NCBI GenBank assembly: GCA_023920165.1
Contig: CP089276.1
Span: 3,844,001-3,908,000, forward strand
Length of the DNA: 64,000 nt
From: Curvularia clavata
Lineage: Eukaryota
Direction of reading: 5' to 3'
Numbering within the stretch: position 1 is the first letter of the stretch; every line of letters begins with the position of its first letter. Positions 16,799 through 41,397 of this stretch are shown piece after piece. The notes under the pieces are model-generated. The model was not told where the DNA came from, ran no database searches, and was given only the letters and a program-made list of their open reading frames with translations. The position numbers were made by a program, and so were the translations under genes.

Positions 16799-19212
16799 AT
16801 GAGCAATATCAAGACACGCCTGCAAAAGGCGCGGTCCAAGTTCTCGCGGCGGAACAGCGAGGCGTCGACACGGGCACGCTCCATTGCCTCGTCGACGGGC
16901 AGCGATCGGCACGAGCAGCACCCGCCGCCGCCCCTCAGCAGCCCGCTGCGGAAGAGCGTTTCGCTGCCAAAGCTGCCTGAGGCGTCTGGCACCGGCACTG
17001 ACACTGGCGAGGGGCGGATGCTGAAGTCGGAGGTGCTGGGTGTGGCCGCCGACCGCCAGGCCGACGCACAAGCAAGCACAGGCAGCATCAACACCACGCC
17101 TAGACATCACGACAGCTCCTCGACACCCACAACCGCAAACACCCCGTCCAGCGCCCACACCCGCCAACCCTCGGCCGACGTGCCCATCGTCTGCCCCCAA
17201 GTCACAATCGAGGAGCCCACGCCCGTCCACCCCATCGTGCCCCCAGCCGAGCTCAACCCACGTGCTCTCCCCGACTCGCTTTCTTCTTCCTCGCCGCTAT
17301 CTCTCCCCGCAACCACCACTACTACCACATCCGCCACCACAAGCTCCTCCAAACCCCCATCGCCCGTCCTCACCCGCCGTCAGTCGCTCGTCAGCAACAC
17401 CGATGCCAACGTAATCAGCACCCTCCTCGTCCCCGACACCTCCACGGCCGCCCCCGTCACAGGCCAGTCCACGGCCGCCGACCCTTCTGGCGCACGCCCT
17501 GCCACGCTCAACGCCGGCATGCTGCACCGCAAAATATGGGTCAAGCGGCCCAATGCCTCGGCCACGCTCGTCCAGATCCGCGAGGATGACCTCGTTGACG
17601 ACGTCCGCGACGTTATCCTCAAAAAGTACGCAAACTCGCTCGGCAGGAGCTTTGACTCGCCAGACGTCACCTTGCGCATTGTACCCCGAGACGGCCAGCG
17701 AGCAGGCGAACGCACCCTGGGACCTGAGGAGGACATGTGCAGGACCATCGACGCCTACTTCCCTGGCGGCCAGACTGTCAACGAGGCCCTCATCATCGAC
17801 GTGCCCCAGCGACGCACGCCAAAACCATCGCCCCGAGTACCCCACTACTACCATCATGAAGACGGCGTTCACCAGCAGACTGAGTACTTCCCGCCCATGT
17901 CCGCCATCACGCCCTCGCCCGCCGTCATGAGCGCCAGCCAGCAGCTGCATGACAGTCGTATCTCGGTGCCCCACCTCCAGTCCATATCTGTCCTCACCAC
18001 CGGACAGCTGCCCACCGTCCCATCCCCCGGCGGCACGCGGCGAGGGCCCCTGCATGCACACCGTCCCAAGTACAACAGAACACACACAGCCTCTCCCACT
18101 ACACTAGGCGGCGGCATCCCCTCGTCTGCTACCTCTGTCCGTCCGCCAAACCGCCCGCGACATGACTCTAGCGCCTCCGAGGCCAAGAACTCTGCTGCTT
18201 CCAACAACCCGATACCCACGCCGCCTGCATCCACCGAGCCTGCGCCTCACACACAGACCCTCCAAACCTCGACACCACCGACCCCCCGCATCTCATCACC
18301 CCAGCTTAACAGCAAGAAGAAGCGGAGAAAGCCTCCAGTAGAGCCACCAGCACTCCCCGCTGGTCTGCTGGACGGATCGGTGCCTCCCATCAATGTCCTG
18401 ATCGTCGAAGACAACATCATCAACTTGCGAGTTCTGGGTGCTTTCATGCAGCGATTAAAGGTTCGCTGGCAGCGCGCAATGAATGGAAAAGAAGCAGTCA
18501 CTAAATGGAAGGCTGGTGGTTTCCATTTGGTGCTCATGGATATTCAACTGCCTGTGATGAACGGTCTTGAGGCCACAAAAGAAATCAGGAGACTAGAGCG
18601 TGTCAACGGCATCGGCGTCTTTAGCAGTGGGAGCAGCGAGGCACCCAATACCCGGCTCGGACAAGATGGCAAGGGCCAAGACGAGCTTAGAGAAGACGAC
18701 AAACTGGGCGACAAGAGCATGTTCAAGAGCCCAGTCATTATTGTCGCGCTTACGGCTAGTTCGTTGCAAAGTGACAGACACGAGGCTTTGGCTGCCGGCT
18801 GCAATGATTTCTTGACAAAGGTACGTTTTGGCATAGCGTTTTGACGCATACCCGGCACTAACATATTTCCCAGCCTGTAAACTTTGTCTGGCTTGAACGC
18901 AAAGTTAAAGAATGGGGCTGCATGCAGGCTCTGATCGACTTTGACGGTTGGCGCAAGTGGAAAGACTTTGCCGACAAGTCCGAGAACAACGACACTACTT
19001 CCAAGCTTTCCGGCAGCTACGCAAGCATTGCCCCGAACAAAAAGGCTAGCAACGCTAGTCCCACCACCGCAAACTCAGAGACGAATGGAGTGAAGAAAGA
19101 GTCCGACACGGAGAGGAAGAACAAGCGCAAGAGCCTGGGCGTTGTGCCACCACCGGTGCTACAAGAAGAGGCCGAGCCACAGCCAGCTGAAGTCAACGGT
19201 GGGGATCATTAA
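16799..19212 (+). CDS. SSK1: Response regulator of the HOG pathway; intron ~18821-18873
   Basis: KIWVKRPNASATLV..DDLVDDVRD, receiver domain NVLIVEDNIIN...HLVLMDIQLP...LTASSLQSDRHEALAAGCNDFLTK/PV, WGCMQALIDFDGW. Confidence 0.93.
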
Positions 19213-30723: not shown

Positions 30724-33700
30724 CTACGTACTCGCAGCAGCAATCCCAGCACGCGTAACCTGCGGTCTTCCCGCCGCCACAATCTTGTCGTCCAAATCAA
30801 GCACTGAGAACCTCGGCCTGCGATACGTGTACCCTACAAACGCACCCCTTTTTCTAATCTCCATGACTGCATGACCAACCTCTGCATCGCGCAGCAGCTT
30901 GTCACGAGGCCGCTTCTTTTCGCGTCTGCGTTTGCGGATTCGATTCAGCGATGTGCAGAGGCCAGTGGGCGCCAAGGGGTCAAAAGCACTGGTTTTCTTG
31001 ACGCTGGGTTGCACAATGGGACAAAAGGGCGCCCGCTGTTCAGGCGCTGAAAAGACTTCGTAGCTTGAAGAATCGAGGTGGTCGGATGCGCTTATGATTT
31101 CGGCTTCGTCGTCAAAATACTTTGTGATTGGCTGGTCGCCATGCACGCGCGGCACAAAGGGCGGGCGTGTCATGTGTAAGATTGACCACTGGATGTTGCG
31201 GAAGAAGGGATGCGATTTTATGTCTTCGGCATCGTGGGGGAAGACGATGCTGCCGATGATTTTGGGGACGTGGCGATGGGTACGAACGCCGAGGAGTTTT
31301 TCACGGAGGACTAGGTCGTTCTCGCGGTATCGCTGGGCGGAGAGTCGGTCTTGTTTCTCGTCGAGAAGGCGGGTCATCAGGTCGATGGCGTTTCGTGACA
31401 CGGGTAGGAGAGGCACGCGGTCGATGTTTGGACGGGCGTAACGCTGGTCTAGTGGGAAGTGTAGCCATCTTTTGTGATCCTAAAGATGTTAGCTTCAGTT
31501 TTGGATAGAAAAGGGTTCTACCTACCAGTATTCGCGCCTTGGTTGCTTGCCTGTTGTCGCTGAAGAATGGCGTGTAACCGTAGAGGCACTGGACGTATTA
31601 GAAAGATTGTCGTCTTTACTTCACAACCGCATACCTCGTATAGTATGATACCAATGCTCCACCAGTCGCAACGCCCATCGTAGCTTTCTCCTCTGATGAC
31701 CTCCGGAGCCATGTACTGACTAGTACCCACAATGCTCTTCGCGAACTGGCGCCTTTGTTCACGATTCAGCCAGTCGATGATGGGTCCATTCGCGGGATCT
31801 TGCCTAGTTTGGTAGCGGCTGCGAGACATGGCATTACCATGGGCGTGACCCATCGTTTGGCGGGCATCCTGTCGACTTCTCTCCTCTTCCATGTCCTGTA
31901 TGTCGCCTTGCACCTGCAAATCCAAGTCGCGAAGTAGACTATACCGCTGTTCATTGTAGTATGCTTGGTTGTGGGTCCAGTGACCGTCGAAAGCAAGACC
32001 AAAATCGGAAATCTTAAGGTGGCCAGACGCAGTGATCAGAAAGTTGTCCGGCTTGACGTCGCGGTGAATCCACTTCATCTTGTGTGCTTCTTCGATGCAA
32101 AGAATCATCTCCGCCAGATACCACTTGGCCACGTTCTCATCGAGAATGTCCTCACGTAAGAGCAAGCCCAGGAAATCCCCACCCATCATGTATTCCATGA
32201 CGAGATATAGGTTGTTGCTGTCTTGAAAGGCAGAAATCAGAGGTACGACCCAACGAGAGTTTTCGGAGGCGACCAAGAAATCTCTCTCTGCTCGCAAGTG
32301 TCCCTCTTGACTGTTGCGAAGCATATCTGACTTCCTGATAACCTTCATGGCAAATACTTGCTTGGGTATGTGATTAGACGTGCAGGGACTTTCGTGTCTT
32401 GGATTCAGGGAGCCATCGAGATATCTCGCACTGCAGCAGCTTCCGCGAAGAGTCTCGCAATTTTCGCTTTTCTCACGAACAAGTCTGACGACGCCAAAGC
32501 TGCCTTTGCCTAGTACCCGGATTATATCATAACTTGAGACATGTACGCCCTTCATCTTCTGCCGAGCTAGGCTGTTCGACTTCATGACTCGTACTTGGCG
32601 TAGGTGATTGGTTTCCGCAAGATACTATTCTCGTCTCTTATTGTGCCGTTGCTCCTCAGATGTTGTTATGGTGAGAAGTTTACGCTCCATTTGCCGGCGT
32701 CGCATAGACCTTGGTGTGGTCTTGGTAGAGAGAAGCTCATTGAAATGCGACTCGAAGAAGACCTTTACAGCCACTGCTTTTTCGATTGTTTGAATCGAGG
32801 GCTCGCACACACGCGGTGCATCTTGACGAGGGAATGCCAGAAACCGCGTAGGCAAATTGTCAGCGATAGGTTCACAAAGAGGAGATGGCGAGTTGTCAGT
32901 CACAAAACGGCCATTGTGGTTACGAAGCGTTGTCTCAGCTGATCGTACTCCACCCGAAGAAACCAGCGACGTGGGTGCGGTAGACTGGCTTAGCGGACCC
33001 ACACTGCTACTTGGGCTGAATATGCTTGACGGCAGAGATGGCACTTCAGACATGGGTATTTTTGGTGGGGGTGTGGTATGTTGTTCATCGTTCTGCTGAT
33101 TGAAGTGACTGAAATCAACAGTAGGCCGGGCACTCAGTCTAGGCCGATGGACCACTGTTTCGTTGTTCAGTATGGCATTCGAAAGCGATGTGGTCAGCTG
33201 CCTAGATAGACCCGGGGTTGATCTGCTCGAGGTTACAGGCGTATGATTTGGCGTGCGAGCTCTAAACGTCGGTTCGGATTCGCCATCGAAGGTGGCGGCG
33301 TTGGTAAGCTGAAGAAGGGATGAGTTGTCACGATCTAAGGTGAGGGGCAGTAGATTCATAGGGGTGTTGGTAAGAGGAACATTTGAAGGCGAGTCGGAAT
33401 AGGGTTTGTCGACCATCTCATAGGTCGACTTGCTTGGTTTGTTTGCTGAGCCTGTACTGCCGAATCCAGCCTCTGTAGAGCTTGGGGAGGAGCCTGATGG
33501 TAGAGTTAAAGCTGGTGGATCAACAAACGAGACATGTAATGCGCGTACTCTTGCCATTACAGAAAATAGAAAAGAGTTTCAGGCTTCCACGACGCAAGCT
33601 CGTAAATTTGCGGCTGGCAGGGGTATTGTTACGAGCATGCCGGGTATTTGTGGCGGCGACGGGTGGAGCTTCTGTAGAACGCTCAACGATACGAACTTTG

Positions 33701-33771
33701 CCCTTATCATGCGCTTCCTGACCAGGGTTATGGGCATCTTTTCGTTTCCGTGGTGGGACAAATGAAATCAT
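30724..33771 (-). CDS. NDR/Cbk1-family AGC kinase carrying one in-frame TAG at 32625-32627 (edited site or nonsense allele); 3 introns
   Basis: GKGSFGVV, FAMKVIRK, HLRAERDFL, HRDVKPDN, DFGLA, VGTSQYMAPE, CDWWSIG, AFVGYTY; exon 1 MISFVPPR... splices in frame to ORF 32625-33557, which is in the same frame as ORF 31518-32585. Confidence 0.85.
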
Positions 33772-34858
33772 GTCACCAATGCTGACGTGTTGATGGTACC
33801 TGGTGTTAAGAATGGGATGAAGTAACGGTGCTGGGCAAACCAAGCCAAGTCCACCAAGGAGAGCAGATGGAGCAGTGCAAGGAGACATAAACACTATCCT
33901 GGGTCTACATGCCAGAGTAAGAAAGTATGGTCGGCGCTACCAACAGAAAGTACTACGAGATAGTGGAAAGTAGCGTCGACCTGCATGTTATTACCGGAAG
34001 CTCGAGAACGCGGAAATAGGAAATCGAGATCAACAAGATTTTCAGTACCGAAGCCGAGTCACTGGGTGCTTAAAACAATACGAGGAGTGCGAGAACAGCT
34101 ACAACCCAACGAAGTGTATGACAAACATTGCTTGAACTGAAAGAGTAATCCGTTTCGCTCACCAATCGTAAGATGATGCCAGAAACATATCTCACCATGA
34201 CTTCAGAAAAAAGAAATAAATAGCCACCAAGATATGCATGCTCAGCGATAGCGTCTGTACTGTCCTCCTGCGATCGGAGTGCCAGCATATCTCGTGACAT
34301 ATACTGGGTTTCAAATGGCCGCATGATCAGAAGGCTCGCTGTGATTCGGCAGAGCGGAAACACCTCTCCGAGGAGTTGGCCGGATGTCATGTTGACCGCT
34401 TTGTTCCTCTCTCTTCGCTCTTCGCCATCTCTGCTGCTGCTTTTGTATTCAAGACGCCCATCCTGCCAAAGCTCGGATAACTCAAGTTATTGCATCCTCC
34501 CTGTTCTGCCCCGCCTCGCTCGGCTGTGGCGCCTTATCCGTTATCGCCTATCGCTTATCGCGACGTCTAAACCTCCGGCTCCTCCAGCATCACGTCACCA
34601 GCCTTCCCCGCAACCACATTCATAGCCGTGTCGGCTGCTCCGGTCAAATACCCAGAAGGGCTTTCGCCACGTGTGTCTCATCTTGACGCGACGGTTACAA
34701 GGCTAGCAAAAAGAACGTTGCATCAGTGTGAATTCATCTAGCAACCGCGAAGTCACAGCGCTCGTTAAGGCCATCGTCGATAGTCTCGACAATCTGATAC
34801 TGCCCAAGGCACTCAACACGACTTATACTGACTGACTTCACATTCCCAACAGCACATC

Positions 34859-35554
34859 ATGCCAAACTCACCAACAACCCCGTTTCCCCTTTACTTGTTT
34901 CCGAGCCTCACGTTTCGCCGACGCAGCAGCTCAGCGTTCAGCGATACCACCAACTCATCGGCATCGCCGTCTTCGTCTCCCCCAAAACCAACCTCCTTTC
35001 TAGTCACGCGACCGACCTCACATCTTCGTTGCCAGAAATGCCTCGCCGATCTTATTCCTACAACTTCAATCATAAGTAAAGGATTCACTGGCAGGCACGG
35101 TCGTGCATATCTCGTCAGCCCACCGTCCGGCTTTCTTCAGGGCGGAAGCTTTTCGGGAACAGGCTTCAAGAATGGCGACTTGCCCAACACCCTTTTACAC
35201 AAACCCCAATCCCGACAACTCGTCACAGGTGAACACACTGTATCTGACATAAGCTGTCGCAATTGCGGAACTGTCCTGGGGTGGAAGTATGTCGATGCCG
35301 CAGAGGACAGCCAAAAGTACAAGATCGGAAAGTTTATACTTGAGGCAAAAAGGACTGTGAAAGGAACGGAGTGGGATCAAGACCTGGAAGAAGAGGATAA
35401 TGGTATGGTCGCGAATACCGAAAAGGACAATATCGAGTTTGATTCCCAAGACGAAGATGAATGCGAGGACCTCTTCAGTGGCATCTGGACTCCTCAACTA
35501 GCAGCAAAAAGAAGGAAGCGTCGCGCATACCCTCATGTTGATCTCTCAACTTAG
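34859..35554 (+). CDS. Yippee/Mis18-family zinc-binding protein
   Basis: CQKC, IISKGFTGRHGRAYL, RQLVTGEHTVSDISCRNCGTVLGWKY, SQKYKIGKFILE. Confidence 0.92.
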   Translation: MPNSPTTPFPLYLFPSLTFRRRSSSAFSDTTNSSASPSSSPPKPTSFLVTRPTSHLRCQKCLADLIPTTSIISKGFTGRHGRAYLVSPPSGFLQGGSFSGTGFKNGDLPNTLLHKPQSRQLVTGEHTVSDISCRNCGTVLGWKYVDAAEDSQKYKIGKFILEAKRTVKGTEWDQDLEEEDNGMVANTEKDNIEFDSQDEDECEDLFSGIWTPQLAAKRRKRRAYPHVDLST

Positions 35555-35890
35555 GCATTCTACGTCCTACCAAAGTCTTGGTACGTACCCTTGGACTTCC
35601 CAGGTACCTTCTCGCAACTGCCATGCCTGCAATATCACGGAATAGCTTGCCCATCACGACACACATATACCTCATCACAGATACCCATATAACCGCACTT
35701 TACGACTCATGATACCCGGAATGGCTCTATGTTTTGGCGCAATGGTTTGTTTTACTTAAATAATGAGTCATGTATCTAACGTACTTTATGCTGGAATGTA
35801 ATGCTGTCTTTAATACCTCACTGACTACCTTGGGATGACCTGGAGGTTCTTTCTTATGCATATCGTTTCAATGCTACAGCTATGGGACTG

Positions 35891-35908
35891 AAGTTTCGCC
35901 GCGCTAGC
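35891..35908 (+). repeat. Left copy of an 18-bp perfect inverted repeat (partner at 41583-41600)
   Basis: AAGTTTCGCCGCGCTAGC is the exact reverse complement of GCTAGCGCGGCGAAACTT at 41583. Confidence 0.85.
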
Positions 35909-35909
35909 C

Positions 35910-36716
35910 CAGTCACCCCACTTACCGCCCACCACCACCACCACCACTTCGAACGTCTCCCACTACCCCAGTACTGCACCAATTCGGTCGCCAAGTGTCT
36001 AAAAAGATGGCCAGAGGTTGAAACATAACCATAGACGAGCGAAATCGCACTATTAGTATATTATAGACGGGTGCAGCTTACACAGAAGTCGCGGTAGTAT
36101 TTTACCACGATGCCACTACTATCCAACGCCTCCACTAAACGTATAACACTACCCACACTACTTATAATAGACCTCGCTCTAGCCATCTAAAGCTATTTTT
36201 AGACTATTAGAAGAAGATTATACGACGTGCTACACGCTAATCTGTGTAAATTATAATATAATTATGTTATGGGCTGAACCCGTACAGAGAACTGTAAGGA
36301 ACCAAAAGTTATTGTATTGCTTAGTATCTACACTTCTTCGGGTTGGGCACTTATAGTATTCTACACGTGATCTTTCCTTCCCTAAGCTCTATAGGGTAGG
36401 CGTAGTCTAACCCATAACATCAACTAGTATTAAAGCGTAGACAGGATAAAAAAAAGCGAATTTAGAAGTAAGAAGTACTTATCAAGGGATATAGCGAGGA
36501 TATTATAGTTTAACATAACACTAATAAGCAAATTGCTCATAAAGAGCGTTAGGGAGGAGAGCGATTAGGTGTTAGCCGCATGGCTCTTACGCGTTATAGC
36601 AGGTGTAGAGAGACTAGTTATTGTTATAATGTAGTAGAGCTGTATACTTGTAGAGGTGCGCAAAGTTAGTAGAGTAACCAACTCGCTTGTATGACCGACT
36701 CACTCATAAACTACGT
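35910..36716 (+). mobile_element. Internally deleted, RIP-mutated pogo/Fot1-like DNA transposon
   Basis: Stop-riddled remnant ...QIAHKER*GGERLGVSRMALTRYSRCRETS resembling the pogo C-terminal zinc knuckle; right end ...actcgcttgtatgaccgactcactcataaactacgt resembles Fot1-type TIRs. Confidence 0.7.
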
Positions 36717-36719
36717 TGA

Positions 36720-38640
36720 TCATCTTATCTAAATCTACTTTATCTACTTCAAAAAGACATACTAACACAATACGCATAGCCTGCATATATCTCACTGCAG
36801 TCCCCATTGAGTGCTGGATTCTATTTGTATAGCTGATCAAGGGTAATACCGTTCGCCACCGCTATGTCGTAGCAATACTGCTATCCTGACTGCACCGCGT
36901 ACTCGTTGCATCGGGTCACTATTTCCAGCTACGTTTACGCGGGCGGCGCCTCGCTTAACGTTTTAGACAAACTAGGTACTATTGTCGGCAACAGCATAGC
37001 AGGGAGAGTAGAAGCATTCTCGTCTTCGCCTGTAGTGCTGTTGGAGACGCAAAAGGTTAGCTTTTACTCTAATACTGGGACGGACTTCCAATCCTGTCAT
37101 TATTGGAAAACTTATCGTCTTTTGCGGGTACGCAATATGTGTAACGCGGCAGGAGAGCACAGCTTGCGGCCTCCAGGCTCTTGTTCTACTCTAGAAGTTG
37201 AGCAACTGTTACCTCGTCAAATCTCGCTACGTTCGCGCATGAGTTCACTATCTTGTCTATGGCCGCATCTCCAGTCGAGGAATAGTTCGCATACTTTGAG
37301 AAATTCGTCCGAGAGCCTGATGCAGTAGGCGATGAGGCTTGAGTAGTGAAAAACCAAGTTCTTGTGGGCCTAGTAGTGCTCGCTTTTGTATGCCGCGTTA
37401 AAGTAGCATCGGCCTCCAGGAAGGAAACGGTAGAGAGCGTGGAAGCATCTTGATAATATGTCGATGCTGGAAAGAGCACGTCATGAGCTGCTGTCGTACT
37501 GGGGTCTGCACTATTGTAACTGGCGTACGCGGTAATATAGCCTACTGCTCTTATATAGTACGCTATATTGACTTAGAGATTGAAGCATCTAGTATCTAAA
37601 ATCAGATTGAGAAAATAAATTCTTTGGAAGAGATGCTGTACTACCCACTGATGGTACTGTAGATGTCGCCTGATATGGCGGTGTACCAAAGCCCGCACTT
37701 GGGGTTCGAGCCAGTAGTAGCGTTTGTGGGAACAGACACCGCTGTCTCAACGGGAGCGGCTGTATGTGTAGTAGCTGGAGGAGCTACACTAGCGAGTATA
37801 GACTGAAGGCCGATATAGATCTGATTTCTGGCCATTCCTCCCAGGTTGGAACACGCGTTGTTGATGTTGAGGTTCTAAGACCTTGACTGCCTTGACAAAT
37901 AGTCCGGAACATACTGAGCAATGATACTTAGACAAGTATCATCTCCCCGAACATTATAAATGGGGTATGGCGACAGTAAACAGACTGACTTTCCTTCTTA
38001 TGGGAAATTAGTGCATCCGACTGCGAGGTTGTTCCAGCATAGGAGGCCAAAGGTAGACATGTTGTGTGCCTGAGCAATAGATTGACATGTATAACCTGCA
38101 AGAACTTGATACCTGTCTGGACAGTCCTTCGATTGTCGGTTTGGAACTGCTGACGCTGTTGAAGAGGTGGTCGTGGGCAGAGTATATGGCTGAGGTGTAA
38201 TGACTGCGTATGTCTGCTTCCCGTAACCTGAGGCACTAGATGAAAGTGCGGCTGCCGCATCCTCATTATATGTAAGCGGAGAAGAGAGCTCAGCCTGCGT
38301 GACTCCGAACATGTAATCTGAACACTGTTGTTCCGTTGTTAAATTGGTCGAGTTTTCCGTTGCCCAGTTTCGCAGGACAGCATGGCAAAAGGCGCCACTT
38401 GTTCTTTTGCTACGTTCTAATTAGCAATGCTATACTCACAGTACGTCTTGCAATTATTTTTACTTACGCGTCTTTCCTACGTGTCGCTGTATAAGACCAC
38501 AGCAGATAGTTAACAACATATGTAGCTGGATAGCTGACTGACCCATCAGATACAACATCTGTTTCAGCCGTACATGCTTTGGCAATGCCCTATCGCGCCC
38601 CTCGTAGGGAGTTCGAGTAGCTAGTAGTACAGAGACAATT
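36720..38640 (-). pseudogene. Multi-LysM-domain (effector-like) pseudogene
   Basis: Fragments YQVLAGYTCQSIAQAHNMSTFGLLCWNNL, NPKCGLWYTAISGD and CSEIYAGYAYCV, broken by several TAA/TAG stops. Confidence 0.75.
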
Positions 38641-38649
38641 AGTATCCAA

Positions 38650-38807
38650 AGAATATCTCTTATTAGGAGATATACATAGTCTAGGGATTGGTTTCTACCT
38701 AGTGATATAATATAGTCTAGGGACTAGTTCTTGTCTAGGGACAGCTACATACCTAGAGAACGTGGTTTGTCTGGAGACTTCGGGATGTCTCCGGACTGGT
38801 CGTAACA
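38650..38807 (-). mobile_element. Truncated LTR fragment
   Basis: Minus strand begins TGTTACGACC..., a typical LTR start, followed by degenerate GTCTAGGGA repeats with TA enrichment; abuts the 5' part of the LysM pseudogene. Confidence 0.5.
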
Positions 38808-39551
38808 CCTACTCACCAGTGATTAGTATTCTGATATTGGCGCCAAGCCTACTAAATAGAAGCTCCTTTCTGTCATTAAATCAAATAACTTGTTATTGGT
38901 AGGCCCGTTAAATTTTGCCCGTCCGCGCGCGTTTGATCGTCTAGTACGTTATGCTAGCAGCGAGGTGGCACAACGGGTTTTCCACATGTTTTCGTCCACA
39001 GCATCTGCCAACCGAGGAAGTTTAGTAATCCGGGCCGTAAAAACGCAAGTCTACAATTTAATCCTCCACGATAAGACAACGCGCCGCGTAAGCAACTGCG
39101 TTAATTCTAAAGTGCTAGTATCAAACTAAGCTGCTTTTCGCCAATAGAAACGACAAATTGAGGGCTATTAAATTCTATCGAATGAAACCTGCGAGTTTTG
39201 GTAGGAGACGCTAAACCAATACGGGCCGATGACTTCAAAAGCTTGCATGATCCTAGTTTTGGACGAGAGTAGGGGTTGCTGTCATGATTACGCCTCACCT
39301 GAACCACAGGGTTGAGCGATGCCAATCAGTCATAGGCATTACTAGTGTACCCACTCACATCAAACAATTTTAGTTATCGCCTGTGCTGTACTATAGTGCC
39401 TGGGTGTGTTAGGGGTATCCCAATATCTAGCTGGTTTGAGCGAAACGTGCATTATTATATATAAGGGTCTGGAGACTGCACAACCTTTTCAGAGTCTAAT
39501 CGCTGTATTCTACCTTATTCAAGAGTCGACAACTATTACAGGAGAACCAAG

Positions 39552-41397
39552 ATGTCGAAAGCTGACTATCTTAACGTGCTAAGCATGCCAACTTCTATTA
39601 TTGCCATCACCACTCTTTTTACTTCAGCATACCTCCTCTACCAGTGGCTTCTTCCAAAACCCATTCCAGGAATCCCATACAATGAAGAAGCCGCAAGATC
39701 GATCTTTGGCGATATCACTTCGCTCCGCAACTATCTAAAAGGTAGCAAAGTCATAACGGACTGGATGCTCTCACATAACAAACGGCATGATTCGCCCATC
39801 GTACAAGTATTCGCAAACTTGTTCGGTACACCATGGGTTATCATTAGTGACTCTTTTGAAGCACAGGTATAAAGGACGGTCAACAATAAGATTTCAATAA
39901 GCTTTACTTACCCATAAGCAAGGACATCGTCATGCGCCGTACCAAGGAGTTCGACAAACCCGACGACCTCAGTGATATGTTCTACTCAATCGCACCAGAC
40001 CATCATACAGTCCAGCCGACGAATGACCAGTGGCGAGCACAGCGTAAACTCATTCAAGATCTCATATCGTCTGCGTTCTTGAATAGTGTTGCTGCACAAC
40101 AGTTGCACACCAATTTTAGCGACTTGATCACGTTGTGGTCGGAAAAGATGCGACTCAGTGAAGGGCGTGCGTTCAATGTTAAAGCAGACGTTTACAATAC
40201 CGCTCTTGAGGCTATCTGGGCTTGTTTATTTGGACTTGAAGGCCAGCAGACAGTGACACGCGAACAAATTGAGATGCTTTCCCAACTCAAAAACGTCACT
40301 CTACCTTCTTCCAAGAACAAAGAAGCTGTCTTTGACGGGGCTACTGTACCGCCAGCTTTTGATGCTATTTTTGAACTGGCGGAAAGCTTGGAAAATGTTG
40401 TCAAGTCACCGTTGCCGCGAATGACGGGCCTGTATATGCGATACATCGATTCAGGTACCAGACGCAAAATCAAACTCAAAGACGATGTCATCCATGAGCA
40501 GATTACCAAAGCAGAAAAGAGAATGGAAATATCTGAGAGCAAAGACAAAATTCATGCTGCCGTGGATCACATGCTTCGACGCGAGAAAATGGTTGCTGAG
40601 AAACAAAATCGCAACCCAGATTACCATTCGAAGTACATGAGTGCAGAGGTATACTAGATTCACTCTCCTCGATATGGATTTATTATCTAACACGTCAATA
40701 GCTCTTTGGTCTTCTTATCGCCGGCCACGATACGACCTCCACTACACTTCTCTGGGCCCTCAAATTTCTCGCGCATCATGACTCCATTCAGACCCGCCTC
40801 CGCACCAACCTCCAAACCTCATTCTCTCAGGCTAGATCCGAATCTCGTCTTCCCTCTGCCCACGAAATCGCCACCTCTAATATTCCATACATGGACGCTT
40901 GCATCGAAGAAATCCTACGTCATTCCAAAACCGGCCTTCTAATATCACGAACTGCAACCACCGACGCTATGATTTTAGGGCACATAGTTCCTAAGGGCAC
41001 TCGTGTATATATGATGCTCAACGGCCCCGGAGTTCTCGAACCTGCTTACAAGATCCCTGATACTCTCCGCAGCCCATCGTTTCATGCAACCAATGGCGGC
41101 AAAACTAGTGACTGGGACGCTAGGGATGTCAAAGTGTTCAACCCAGAGCGCTGGTTAGTAGGTAGTGGAAATGGAAAAGTGTTCAATGCGCAGGCTGGAC
41201 CGCAAATGGCGTTTGGCGGGGGGAAGAGAGGATGCTTTGGGAAGAGGCTCGCCTATCTTGAGTTGAAAACAGTGATTGCGTTAATTGTGTGGAGTTTTGT
41301 GCTGGAGAAAGTACCAGAACAGTATGCAGGATGGGAGGCGATGGACCAATTGACACATCAGCCTGTCGATTGTTATGTAAAGTTGAGGAAGGTTTGA
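39552..41397 (+). CDS. Cytochrome P450 monooxygenase; introns ~39867-39917 and ~40649-40701
   Basis: N-terminal anchor plus LPKPIPGIPYN, I-helix AGHDTT, EEILR, PERW and heme motif FGGGKRGCFG. Confidence 0.92.

Follow-up and report, generated by a model that had tools for sequence, protein, structure and literature searches.

The closest described systems are fungal genes in which a stop codon is edited in the mRNA. In Fusarium graminearum and Neurospora, the gene PUK1 (stk-21) and about 70 others carry premature stops that are corrected by adenosine-to-inosine (A-to-I) mRNA editing (PMC4817773, PMC10776026, PMC11156358). Such corrected stops are described as TAG codons derived mainly from TGG, with recurrent origins at one site (PMC10776026, PMC4817773), and the annotation of PUK1 hid its stop by means of a false intron (PMC4817773). 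For Sordariomycetes, a further report describes stop-loss editing of DBF2, where a hairpin-embedded TAG is edited during ascospore formation and the editing sets the dose of an NDR-family kinase (PMC13123824). Here, we describe a 64,000-nucleotide (nt) stretch of Curvularia clavata DNA (contig CP089276.1, positions 3,844,001 to 3,908,000; hereafter the window, meaning the whole stretch that was analyzed), which holds on its minus strand a gene for an NDR-family protein kinase with a TAG in its reading frame. We confirmed that this TAG is a real single stop in an otherwise intact kinase gene. We consider it probable, at roughly 85%, that the stop is a maintained one that must be recoded. As the route, we tentatively favor A-to-I editing of UAG to UGG, at just under even odds.

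The minus strand around the site reads ...AAG AGA CGA GAA TAG TAT CTT GCG..., and the stop-to-stop open reading frames (ORFs) on its two sides, 32625-33578 and 31518-32624, lie in one shared frame. With its four exons joined at the three introns that RNA contigs define, the gene runs for 966 codons from the ATG at 33771, which resembles the start of homologues. Codon 364 is its sole internal stop, and it closes with an ordinary TAG where homologues end as well. An earlier note, made from the sequence alone, had read the locus as two ORFs in one frame, a single in-frame TAG in an otherwise intact NDR kinase, and a gene free of other lesions; the minus-strand sequence and the joined frame agree with this reading, and no second lesion was found in the 966 codons. 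Because the gene's own terminal stop is also TAG, this codon is not reassigned genome-wide. The RNA contigs (Logan) stem from four runs of unstated developmental stage: X4 and X8, which belong to two studies of one organism and to another strain than the window; X16, from organism E; and X18, from organism G, which has no coverage over 32444-32879. The features of the gene, all on the minus strand, are as follows.

32625..32627, minus strand: in-frame TAG, codon 364, with the candidate recoded A at 32626 (from sequence and reading frame)
33549..33771, minus strand: exon 1, with the homologue-like start ATG at 33771-33769 (MISFVPPRKRKD...)
33494..33548, minus strand: 5' intron, 55 nt (GTACGC...CATCAG), absent from the X16 RNA contig
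31635..33493, minus strand: exon 2, encoding most of the kinase domain as well as the N-terminal region and interrupted by the in-frame TAG, an unbroken RNA contig piece in X4, X8 and X16
31589..31634, minus strand: intron 2, 46 nt, absent from the RNA contigs of X4, X8 and X16
31526..31588, minus strand: exon 3, from RNA contigs and the joined frame
31480..31525, minus strand: intron 3, 46 nt (GTAGGT...TTTAG), absent from the RNA contigs of X4, X8 and X16
30724..31479, minus strand: exon 4, with the last part of the kinase domain, the C-terminal hydrophobic motif and the terminal TAG, from the joined frame
30840-30808, minus strand: hydrophobic motif FVGYTYRRPRF, residues 929-939
32730..32795, minus strand: start of the putative N-terminal regulatory region (IQTIEKAVAVKVFFESHFNELL), placed by a weak alignment to the N-terminal region of yeast Cbk1
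32586..32624, minus strand: 13 codons (YLAETNHLRQVRV) from the TAG to the first downstream ATG, evolving as translated sequence
32583..32585, minus strand: first downstream ATG, the start of many public gene models in relatives
32620..32631, minus strand: 12-nt block AGAATAGTATCT, identical in each of the six TAG-bearing sequences that were aligned
32618..32633, minus strand: hairpin predicted by folding, with the UAG inside a 6-nt loop (AUAGUA) closed by a 5-base pair stem (CGAGA/UCUUG)

The same stop was present at the same codon in relatives of the window. A metagenome scan returned 11 loci, of which nine are orthologues (L001-L009) and two, L010 and L011, are distant kinases (22-24% identity) that were excluded from all counts. 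Six of the nine orthologues carry the TAG: L001-L003 are Pyrenophora-like and L004-L006 Alternaria-like, i.e., from two other Pleosporaceae-like lineages, and they read GAA TAG TAT CTY GC, whereas the Didymellaceae-like L007-L009 carry TGG. All seven nucleotide sequences with a stop here (the window and L001-L006) use TAG, and none has TAA or TGA. At the protein level, every one of 24 fetched N-terminal-half models stops exactly before this codon. These half-models comprise five unnamed records and 19 named Pleosporales records, four of the latter being marked partial: Bipolaris oryzae, Alternaria panax, A. tenuissima (two), A. alternata, Pyrenophora seminiperda, P. teres, Clathrospora, Cucurbitaria, Pyrenochaeta (two), Ampelomyces, Plenodomus (two), Coniothyrium, Macroventuria, Didymella glomerata, Clohesyomyces, and Corynespora. 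In many named species, the half-models stand as separate “hypothetical protein” entries, and in P. teres and Plenodomus lindquistii both halves are annotated under consecutive locus tags; in other records the annotation bridges the site, by an implausibly short intron in Bipolaris maydis (P0002) and by a larger skip in Decorospora (P0005) and Stemphylium (P0094).

Among the first 200 homologous proteins, the residue at the site is Trp in 98, Leu in 2, and Tyr in 1, while 54 end there and 25 begin at the next Met (the 54 and 25 being cluster representatives). Trp is therefore the residue in 98 of the 101 homologues that read through, and remote orthologues likewise have Trp; by this comparison, the stop is a replacement of an ancestral, nearly universal Trp codon (TGG>TAG). 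A tree of 102 rows placed the window within a Pleosporaceae clade that is well supported (FastTree support being local only) and in which 21 of 21 members are labeled as stop, and it required at least seven changes between the stop and sense states. Of the 29 stop labels, 28 were inferred from truncated or bridged gene models, with truncation as the sole basis for Delitschia and Lepidopterella; the tree omits 19 of 121 proteins, which did not match the core pattern, and 8 rows have no state. By this pattern, the stop has persisted across the Pleosporaceae and also occurs in several further lineages of the Pleosporales. Two proteins in this set are unusual. P0107, labeled Curvularia kusanoi, has Trp at the site and is the only Pleosporaceae-labeled sense form that we saw; it groups with Didymella exigua, not with Bipolaris or other Pleosporaceae, at 65% identity to the window protein, and it could be a wrong label, a contaminant or a paralogue. 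P0004, which is Plenodomus-like, has Tyr at the site, and the other four members of its clade are labeled as stop; its sequence suggests a TAG>TAY change, with Tyr tolerated at this position.

Selection acts on both sides of the stop. Among the TAG-bearers, the ratio of nonsynonymous to synonymous substitution rates (dN/dS) was 0.07-0.21 for the 236 codons compared upstream of the stop and 0.03-0.14 for the codons downstream of it, of which up to 325 were compared, with the synonymous divergence dS between the three TAG-bearing lineages being saturated (>1 or not computable). The orthologues thus display the pattern that the earlier note had proposed to look for, with TAG in several species, TGG in others, and purifying selection upstream and downstream. 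The 13 codons directly after the TAG are particularly telling: across 15 pairs of TAG-bearers, they showed 3-9 synonymous-only differences versus 0-3 amino-acid changes. These codons evolve as coding sequence and hence are translated, which means that ribosomes must pass the TAG; it also makes the ATG at 32585 unlikely as the sole mode of expression, and separate translation of the kinase domain from that ATG, which had been listed as an alternative, is accordingly disfavored.

These 13 codons likewise bear on a reading in which the TAG is a true terminator, kept to split or silence the gene. The 363-residue fragment would then be the main product, possibly a decoy for the partner of the kinase, and the kinase half, if made at all, would come from an internal start. 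Public annotations in many species do show two separate genes, the upstream half taken alone is under purifying selection, and an ATG lies 14 codons downstream of the stop in all seven TAG-bearing sequences. However, the codons between TAG and ATG are conserved as protein while synonymous change in them is free, and, in the window, they offer no conserved near-cognate start codon. The stop, moreover, interrupts the putative regulatory region, an element on which NDR kinases depend, the RNA contigs show one continuous transcript, and 0 of the 7 sequences have changed to TAA or TGA, although a mere stop could drift among these codons. We consider a true terminator improbable.

The nucleotides around the stop are conserved as well. 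Among the invariant runs within 1,695 aligned nt, the 12-nt block shares second place in length, and both codons that flank the TAG keep their third base, which is kept in only 59 of 340 amino-acid-invariant degenerate codons. The alignment thus gives modest evidence that the RNA itself is constrained here.

The RNA contigs cross the site without interruption. In X4, X8, and X16, a single contig piece runs unbroken over 31635-33492/3 while the true introns are skipped, and X4 and X8 show the genomic letter at 32626. The X4/X8 strain differs from the window at 12 positions in the 3' piece and at 4 positions in the piece that contains the site, none of them at the site itself; for X16, the corresponding piece has 22 differences. 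L002, although found in a “metagenome” collection, is evidently mRNA-derived, since neither kinase-domain intron is present in it (605 codons stay open downstream), and it still carries the TAG; it apparently keeps the 5' intron. The finding of the TAG in the RNA of a different strain, at six orthologous loci of other lineages and, by implication, in the 19 named records (all 24 half-models ending before it) refutes an assembly error as well as the sequencing error and the strain-private nonsense mutation that the earlier note had kept as alternatives. A dying pseudogene is refuted as well by the single lesion in 966 codons and by dN/dS values far below 1 on both sides. The change TGG>TAG does correspond to CpA>TpA on the opposite strand, the type produced by repeat-induced point mutation (RIP), but the dinucleotide indices of the gene (TpA/ApT 0.69; (CpA+TpG)/(ApC+GpT) 1.17) are not RIP-like by the customary thresholds, which speaks against the suggested RIP-type origin by decay. 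We give this group of explanations next to no weight.

Splicing could, in principle, remove the stop. The earlier note had found no in-frame intron that would do so, but the window does contain in-frame GT..AG pairs with this property, namely, 32625>32572 (54 nt) and 32683>32594, 32588, and 32567 (90, 96, and 117 nt). The practical side of the claim stood: given the unbroken contigs in three of the four runs, no such pair is used in the dominant mRNA. A minor alternative splice might start from a weak donor, GTATCT, at the G of the TAG or end at an acceptor formed by the TAG. The donor-like GTATCT lies within the invariant block and, together with AGs at +127, +160, and +187, is common to all six TAG-bearers; it lacks, however, the consensus G at intron position 5. 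Furthermore, the spliced L002 contig crosses the site unspliced, as do X4, X8, and X16, the acceptor of the 54-nt candidate is not conserved in L002-L006, and every shared candidate would remove a conserved element, either the regulatory motif or the glycine-rich loop. A splice that removes the stop is thus very improbable.

The 5' end of the gene showed some variation of its own. Homologue N-termini begin with M(M)SLVPTRKRKD, and a second in-frame ATG lies at 33888, with 39 open codons upstream of the homologue-like start (33772-33888). The 5' intron is partly retained: X4 and X8 have both spliced and unspliced contigs, the unspliced one spanning 33464-33577 and the loose end of the spliced one matching the end of exon 1, and X16 is fully spliced. 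At 33549-33570 (minus strand), the window strain reads ...IFCNGK versus ...IFRNGK in the X4/X8 strain (from the loose-end letters) and in homologues, a strain-level Arg/Cys difference that adjoins the end of exon 1.

The kinase itself was assigned by comparison with solved structures. The best matches were human NDR1/STK38 (6bxi_A, 7.5e-53) and yeast Cbk1 (4lqs_A, 1.1e-50), both ranking above ROCK, MRCK, S6K, and PKA in the structure-sequence comparison, and the Pkinase domain matched at 1.4e-41. Ahead of the kinase domain, residues 257-364 show a weak alignment (i-Evalue 0.042) to residues 31-125 of Cbk1. The stretch ETNHLRQVR, which the earlier note matched to the pattern ETxxLRxxR, is a putative NDR N-terminal regulatory (Mob-binding) motif. 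A long insert separates DFG from APE (ISDFGLA at residues 569-575; REQRRQFAKSIVGTSQYMAPE at residues 652-672), and the latter segment, a basic stretch before the activation-segment Ser, lies within the alignments to both Cbk1 and NDR1. The NDR/LATS hydrophobic motif has the form aromatic-x-x-aromatic-Thr-aromatic-basic, which FVGYTYRRPRF fits; this segment is nearly invariant across 27 aligned proteins. On these similarities, the predicted product is an NDR/LATS-subfamily AGC kinase. It appears to form an orthologue group of its own, the name “cbk1” in the sources being automatic only. Among the best 120 of 3,682 protein matches, all named proteins are from Dothideomycetes and almost all from Pleosporales, the closest being those of Exserohilum (88%), Bipolaris (85-86%), and Alternaria (84%). 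The dothideomycete host that the earlier note had raised as a condition is thereby borne out, with Pleosporales as its order.

How might the stop be passed? By default, an mRNA with the UAG would yield a 363-residue N-terminal fragment without the kinase domain, and under some condition the stop would be decoded as sense, giving the full 966-residue kinase. In the editing route, the middle A would be deaminated to give UIG, which would be read as UGG (Trp); we infer the editing, its timing and its enzyme. The enzyme would be of the tRNA-adenosine-deaminase type, acting on a small hairpin loop, and the timing would presumably be sexual development, as for PUK1-type genes in Sordariomycetes. We rank editing first because it would restore the ancestral Trp, because the site has U at -1, and because predicted folding places the A within a hairpin loop in some lineages. 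In the site context A-A-U-A-G-U-A, the U at -1 and the G at +1 agree with the preferences in Fusarium, where 85.7% of editing sites have U at -1 and A or G is favored at +1 (PMC4817773). The hairpin with the A in its loop was predicted at -3.2 kcal/mol (z -1.3) in the window, with z -3.1 in L004/L005 and z -5.1 in L006, and no hairpin was predicted in the TGG-bearers L007 and L008. In tRNA with the anticodon AGU, positions 33-37 read U-A-G-U-A, and such tRNAs belong to the natural substrate class of the tRNA deaminase; by analogy, the loop core U-A-G-U-A would equal these positions.

A number of points weigh against editing. The A at -2 and the U at +2 are off the weak Fusarium preferences, such that the context, which the earlier note judged to fit editing, matches at -1 and +1 and not at these two positions. 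The hairpin is weak in the window, the fold is looser in L001 and L003, with a loose outer stem, and compensatory changes occur in none of the five stem pairs. Alternaria is a largely asexual genus, and both halves of the gene are strongly selected in the Alternaria-like lineages, which constitutive readthrough fits more easily. Readthrough of UAG can insert Tyr, the residue that P0004 has at the site. Among 313 proteins, we found no sense-codon homologue with Pleosporaceae-like flanks; this search for the Trp form covered the first 200 proteins and 111 further short ones, and it is a weak negative because 95 of the 111 did not match the motif pattern used. No edited letter was seen in X4, X8, or L002, and UAG stands in every readable RNA sequence. 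Since contigs drop rare variants and the stage is unstated, the unedited UAG neither shows nor excludes editing. Of the editing- or readthrough-gated kinase that had been proposed, the maintained stop that must be recoded is upheld as probable, and the editing itself did not appear in the RNA. From the literature, we found no report of A-to-I mRNA editing in Dothideomycetes or Pleosporales, paywalled texts and supplements lying outside the search. The documented cases of editing are confined to Sordariomycetes and Pyronema, other classes of Pezizomycotina are left undetermined (PMC10776026), and the Ame1-Tad3 interaction that editing needs in Fusarium is said to have originated in Sordariomycetes (PMC11087585).

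Several of these points would suit programmed readthrough, in which a near-cognate tRNA decodes the UAG and an unedited mRNA gives a low, perhaps regulated, dose of the full-length kinase at all stages. The UAG-containing mRNA assembles well in RNA runs that are probably of a non-sexual stage, and the codons directly after the stop evolve as coding sequence. Selection on both halves is seen in every lineage, possibly including asexual ones, and the nucleotides around the stop are invariant, as a readthrough context would give. An AA precedes the stop, which favors readthrough in yeast, and Tyr takes the place of the stop in P0004. Yet UAG-UAU-CUU fits neither of the familiar readthrough motifs (CAR-YYA after UAG; CUA(G) after UGA), and readthrough of UAG is not expected to insert the Trp found in 98 of 101 homologues. 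Furthermore, at least seven changes between stop and Trp at one codon are what restorative editing predicts. We regard programmed readthrough as the main rival, at clearly less than even odds, and A-to-I editing stays our tentative first choice.

Elsewhere in the window, a tRNA scan found none. Six pairs of ORFs with at least 120 open codons on each side are separated by a single stop (3 TAG, 2 TGA, and 1 TAA). The other two TAG cases, at 17299 (minus strand) and 13690 (plus strand), were rejected, as their translations are of low complexity and look noncoding; both of these TAGs are preceded by AGA. The bin 32001-40000 is the most RIP-like of the 8-kb bins (TpA/ApT 1.02; (CpA+TpG)/(ApC+GpT) 1.05; GC content 0.471).

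If editing is the route, then the Pleosporales, which form pseudothecia, might possess stage-specific A-to-I mRNA editing, as a third lineage besides Sordariomycetes and Pezizomycetes. We see this as possible but lean slightly against it. Reviews leave open whether pseudothecia-forming fungi edit their mRNAs (PMC7306014, PMC10776026), and the current model has the mechanism as a Sordariomycete innovation (PMC11087585). Editing in Pleosporales would imply either a machinery that is independent of the Sordariomycete-type Ame1-Tad3 contact or an origin of editing that is older than thought. The kinase of the window would be the first known restorative editing target in Pleosporales, and its stop would predate the radiation of the Pleosporaceae; in other families, it would have appeared or disappeared more than once at this Trp codon. 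If, instead, the stop is read through, the gene would give an unusually large programmed-readthrough product, with a whole catalytic domain behind the UAG. Either way, dozens of public annotations, in which the gene is split or a false intron spans the stop, need correction, and the site offers a single, deeply conserved, and easily assayed nucleotide in many culturable Pleosporales.

Compared with known systems, the kinase shares with Cbk1, COT1, and human NDR1/STK38 the insert before the activation segment and the C-terminal hydrophobic motif, along with a putative N-terminal regulatory region, and it differs from them in an N-terminal extension of ~300 residues that is poorly ordered. With the PUK1 set, it has in common an in-frame UAG in an intact conserved gene, derivation from TGG, retention across species, recurrent origins, and U at -1. 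Like PUK1 itself, it encodes a protein kinase, with an annotation that adds a false intron or splits the gene. Unlike PUK1, however, its host class is Dothideomycetes, without reported mRNA editing; its stop lies in the putative N-terminal regulatory region instead of kinase subdomain IX; and the kinase family differs, our search having found no literature that links PUK1 to NDR in Fusarium graminearum. In DBF2, a normal terminal stop is edited and a destabilizing tail is added, whereas in the window gene an internal stop would have to go for any kinase to be made. Programmed readthrough genes are also known in fungi, e.g., those for peroxisomal isoforms of glycolytic enzymes. The window gene resembles these in having a conserved stop followed by conserved translated sequence, but, where they carry a short C-terminal signal after a UGA-CUA-type context, it has 600 codons with the whole catalytic domain behind a UAG.

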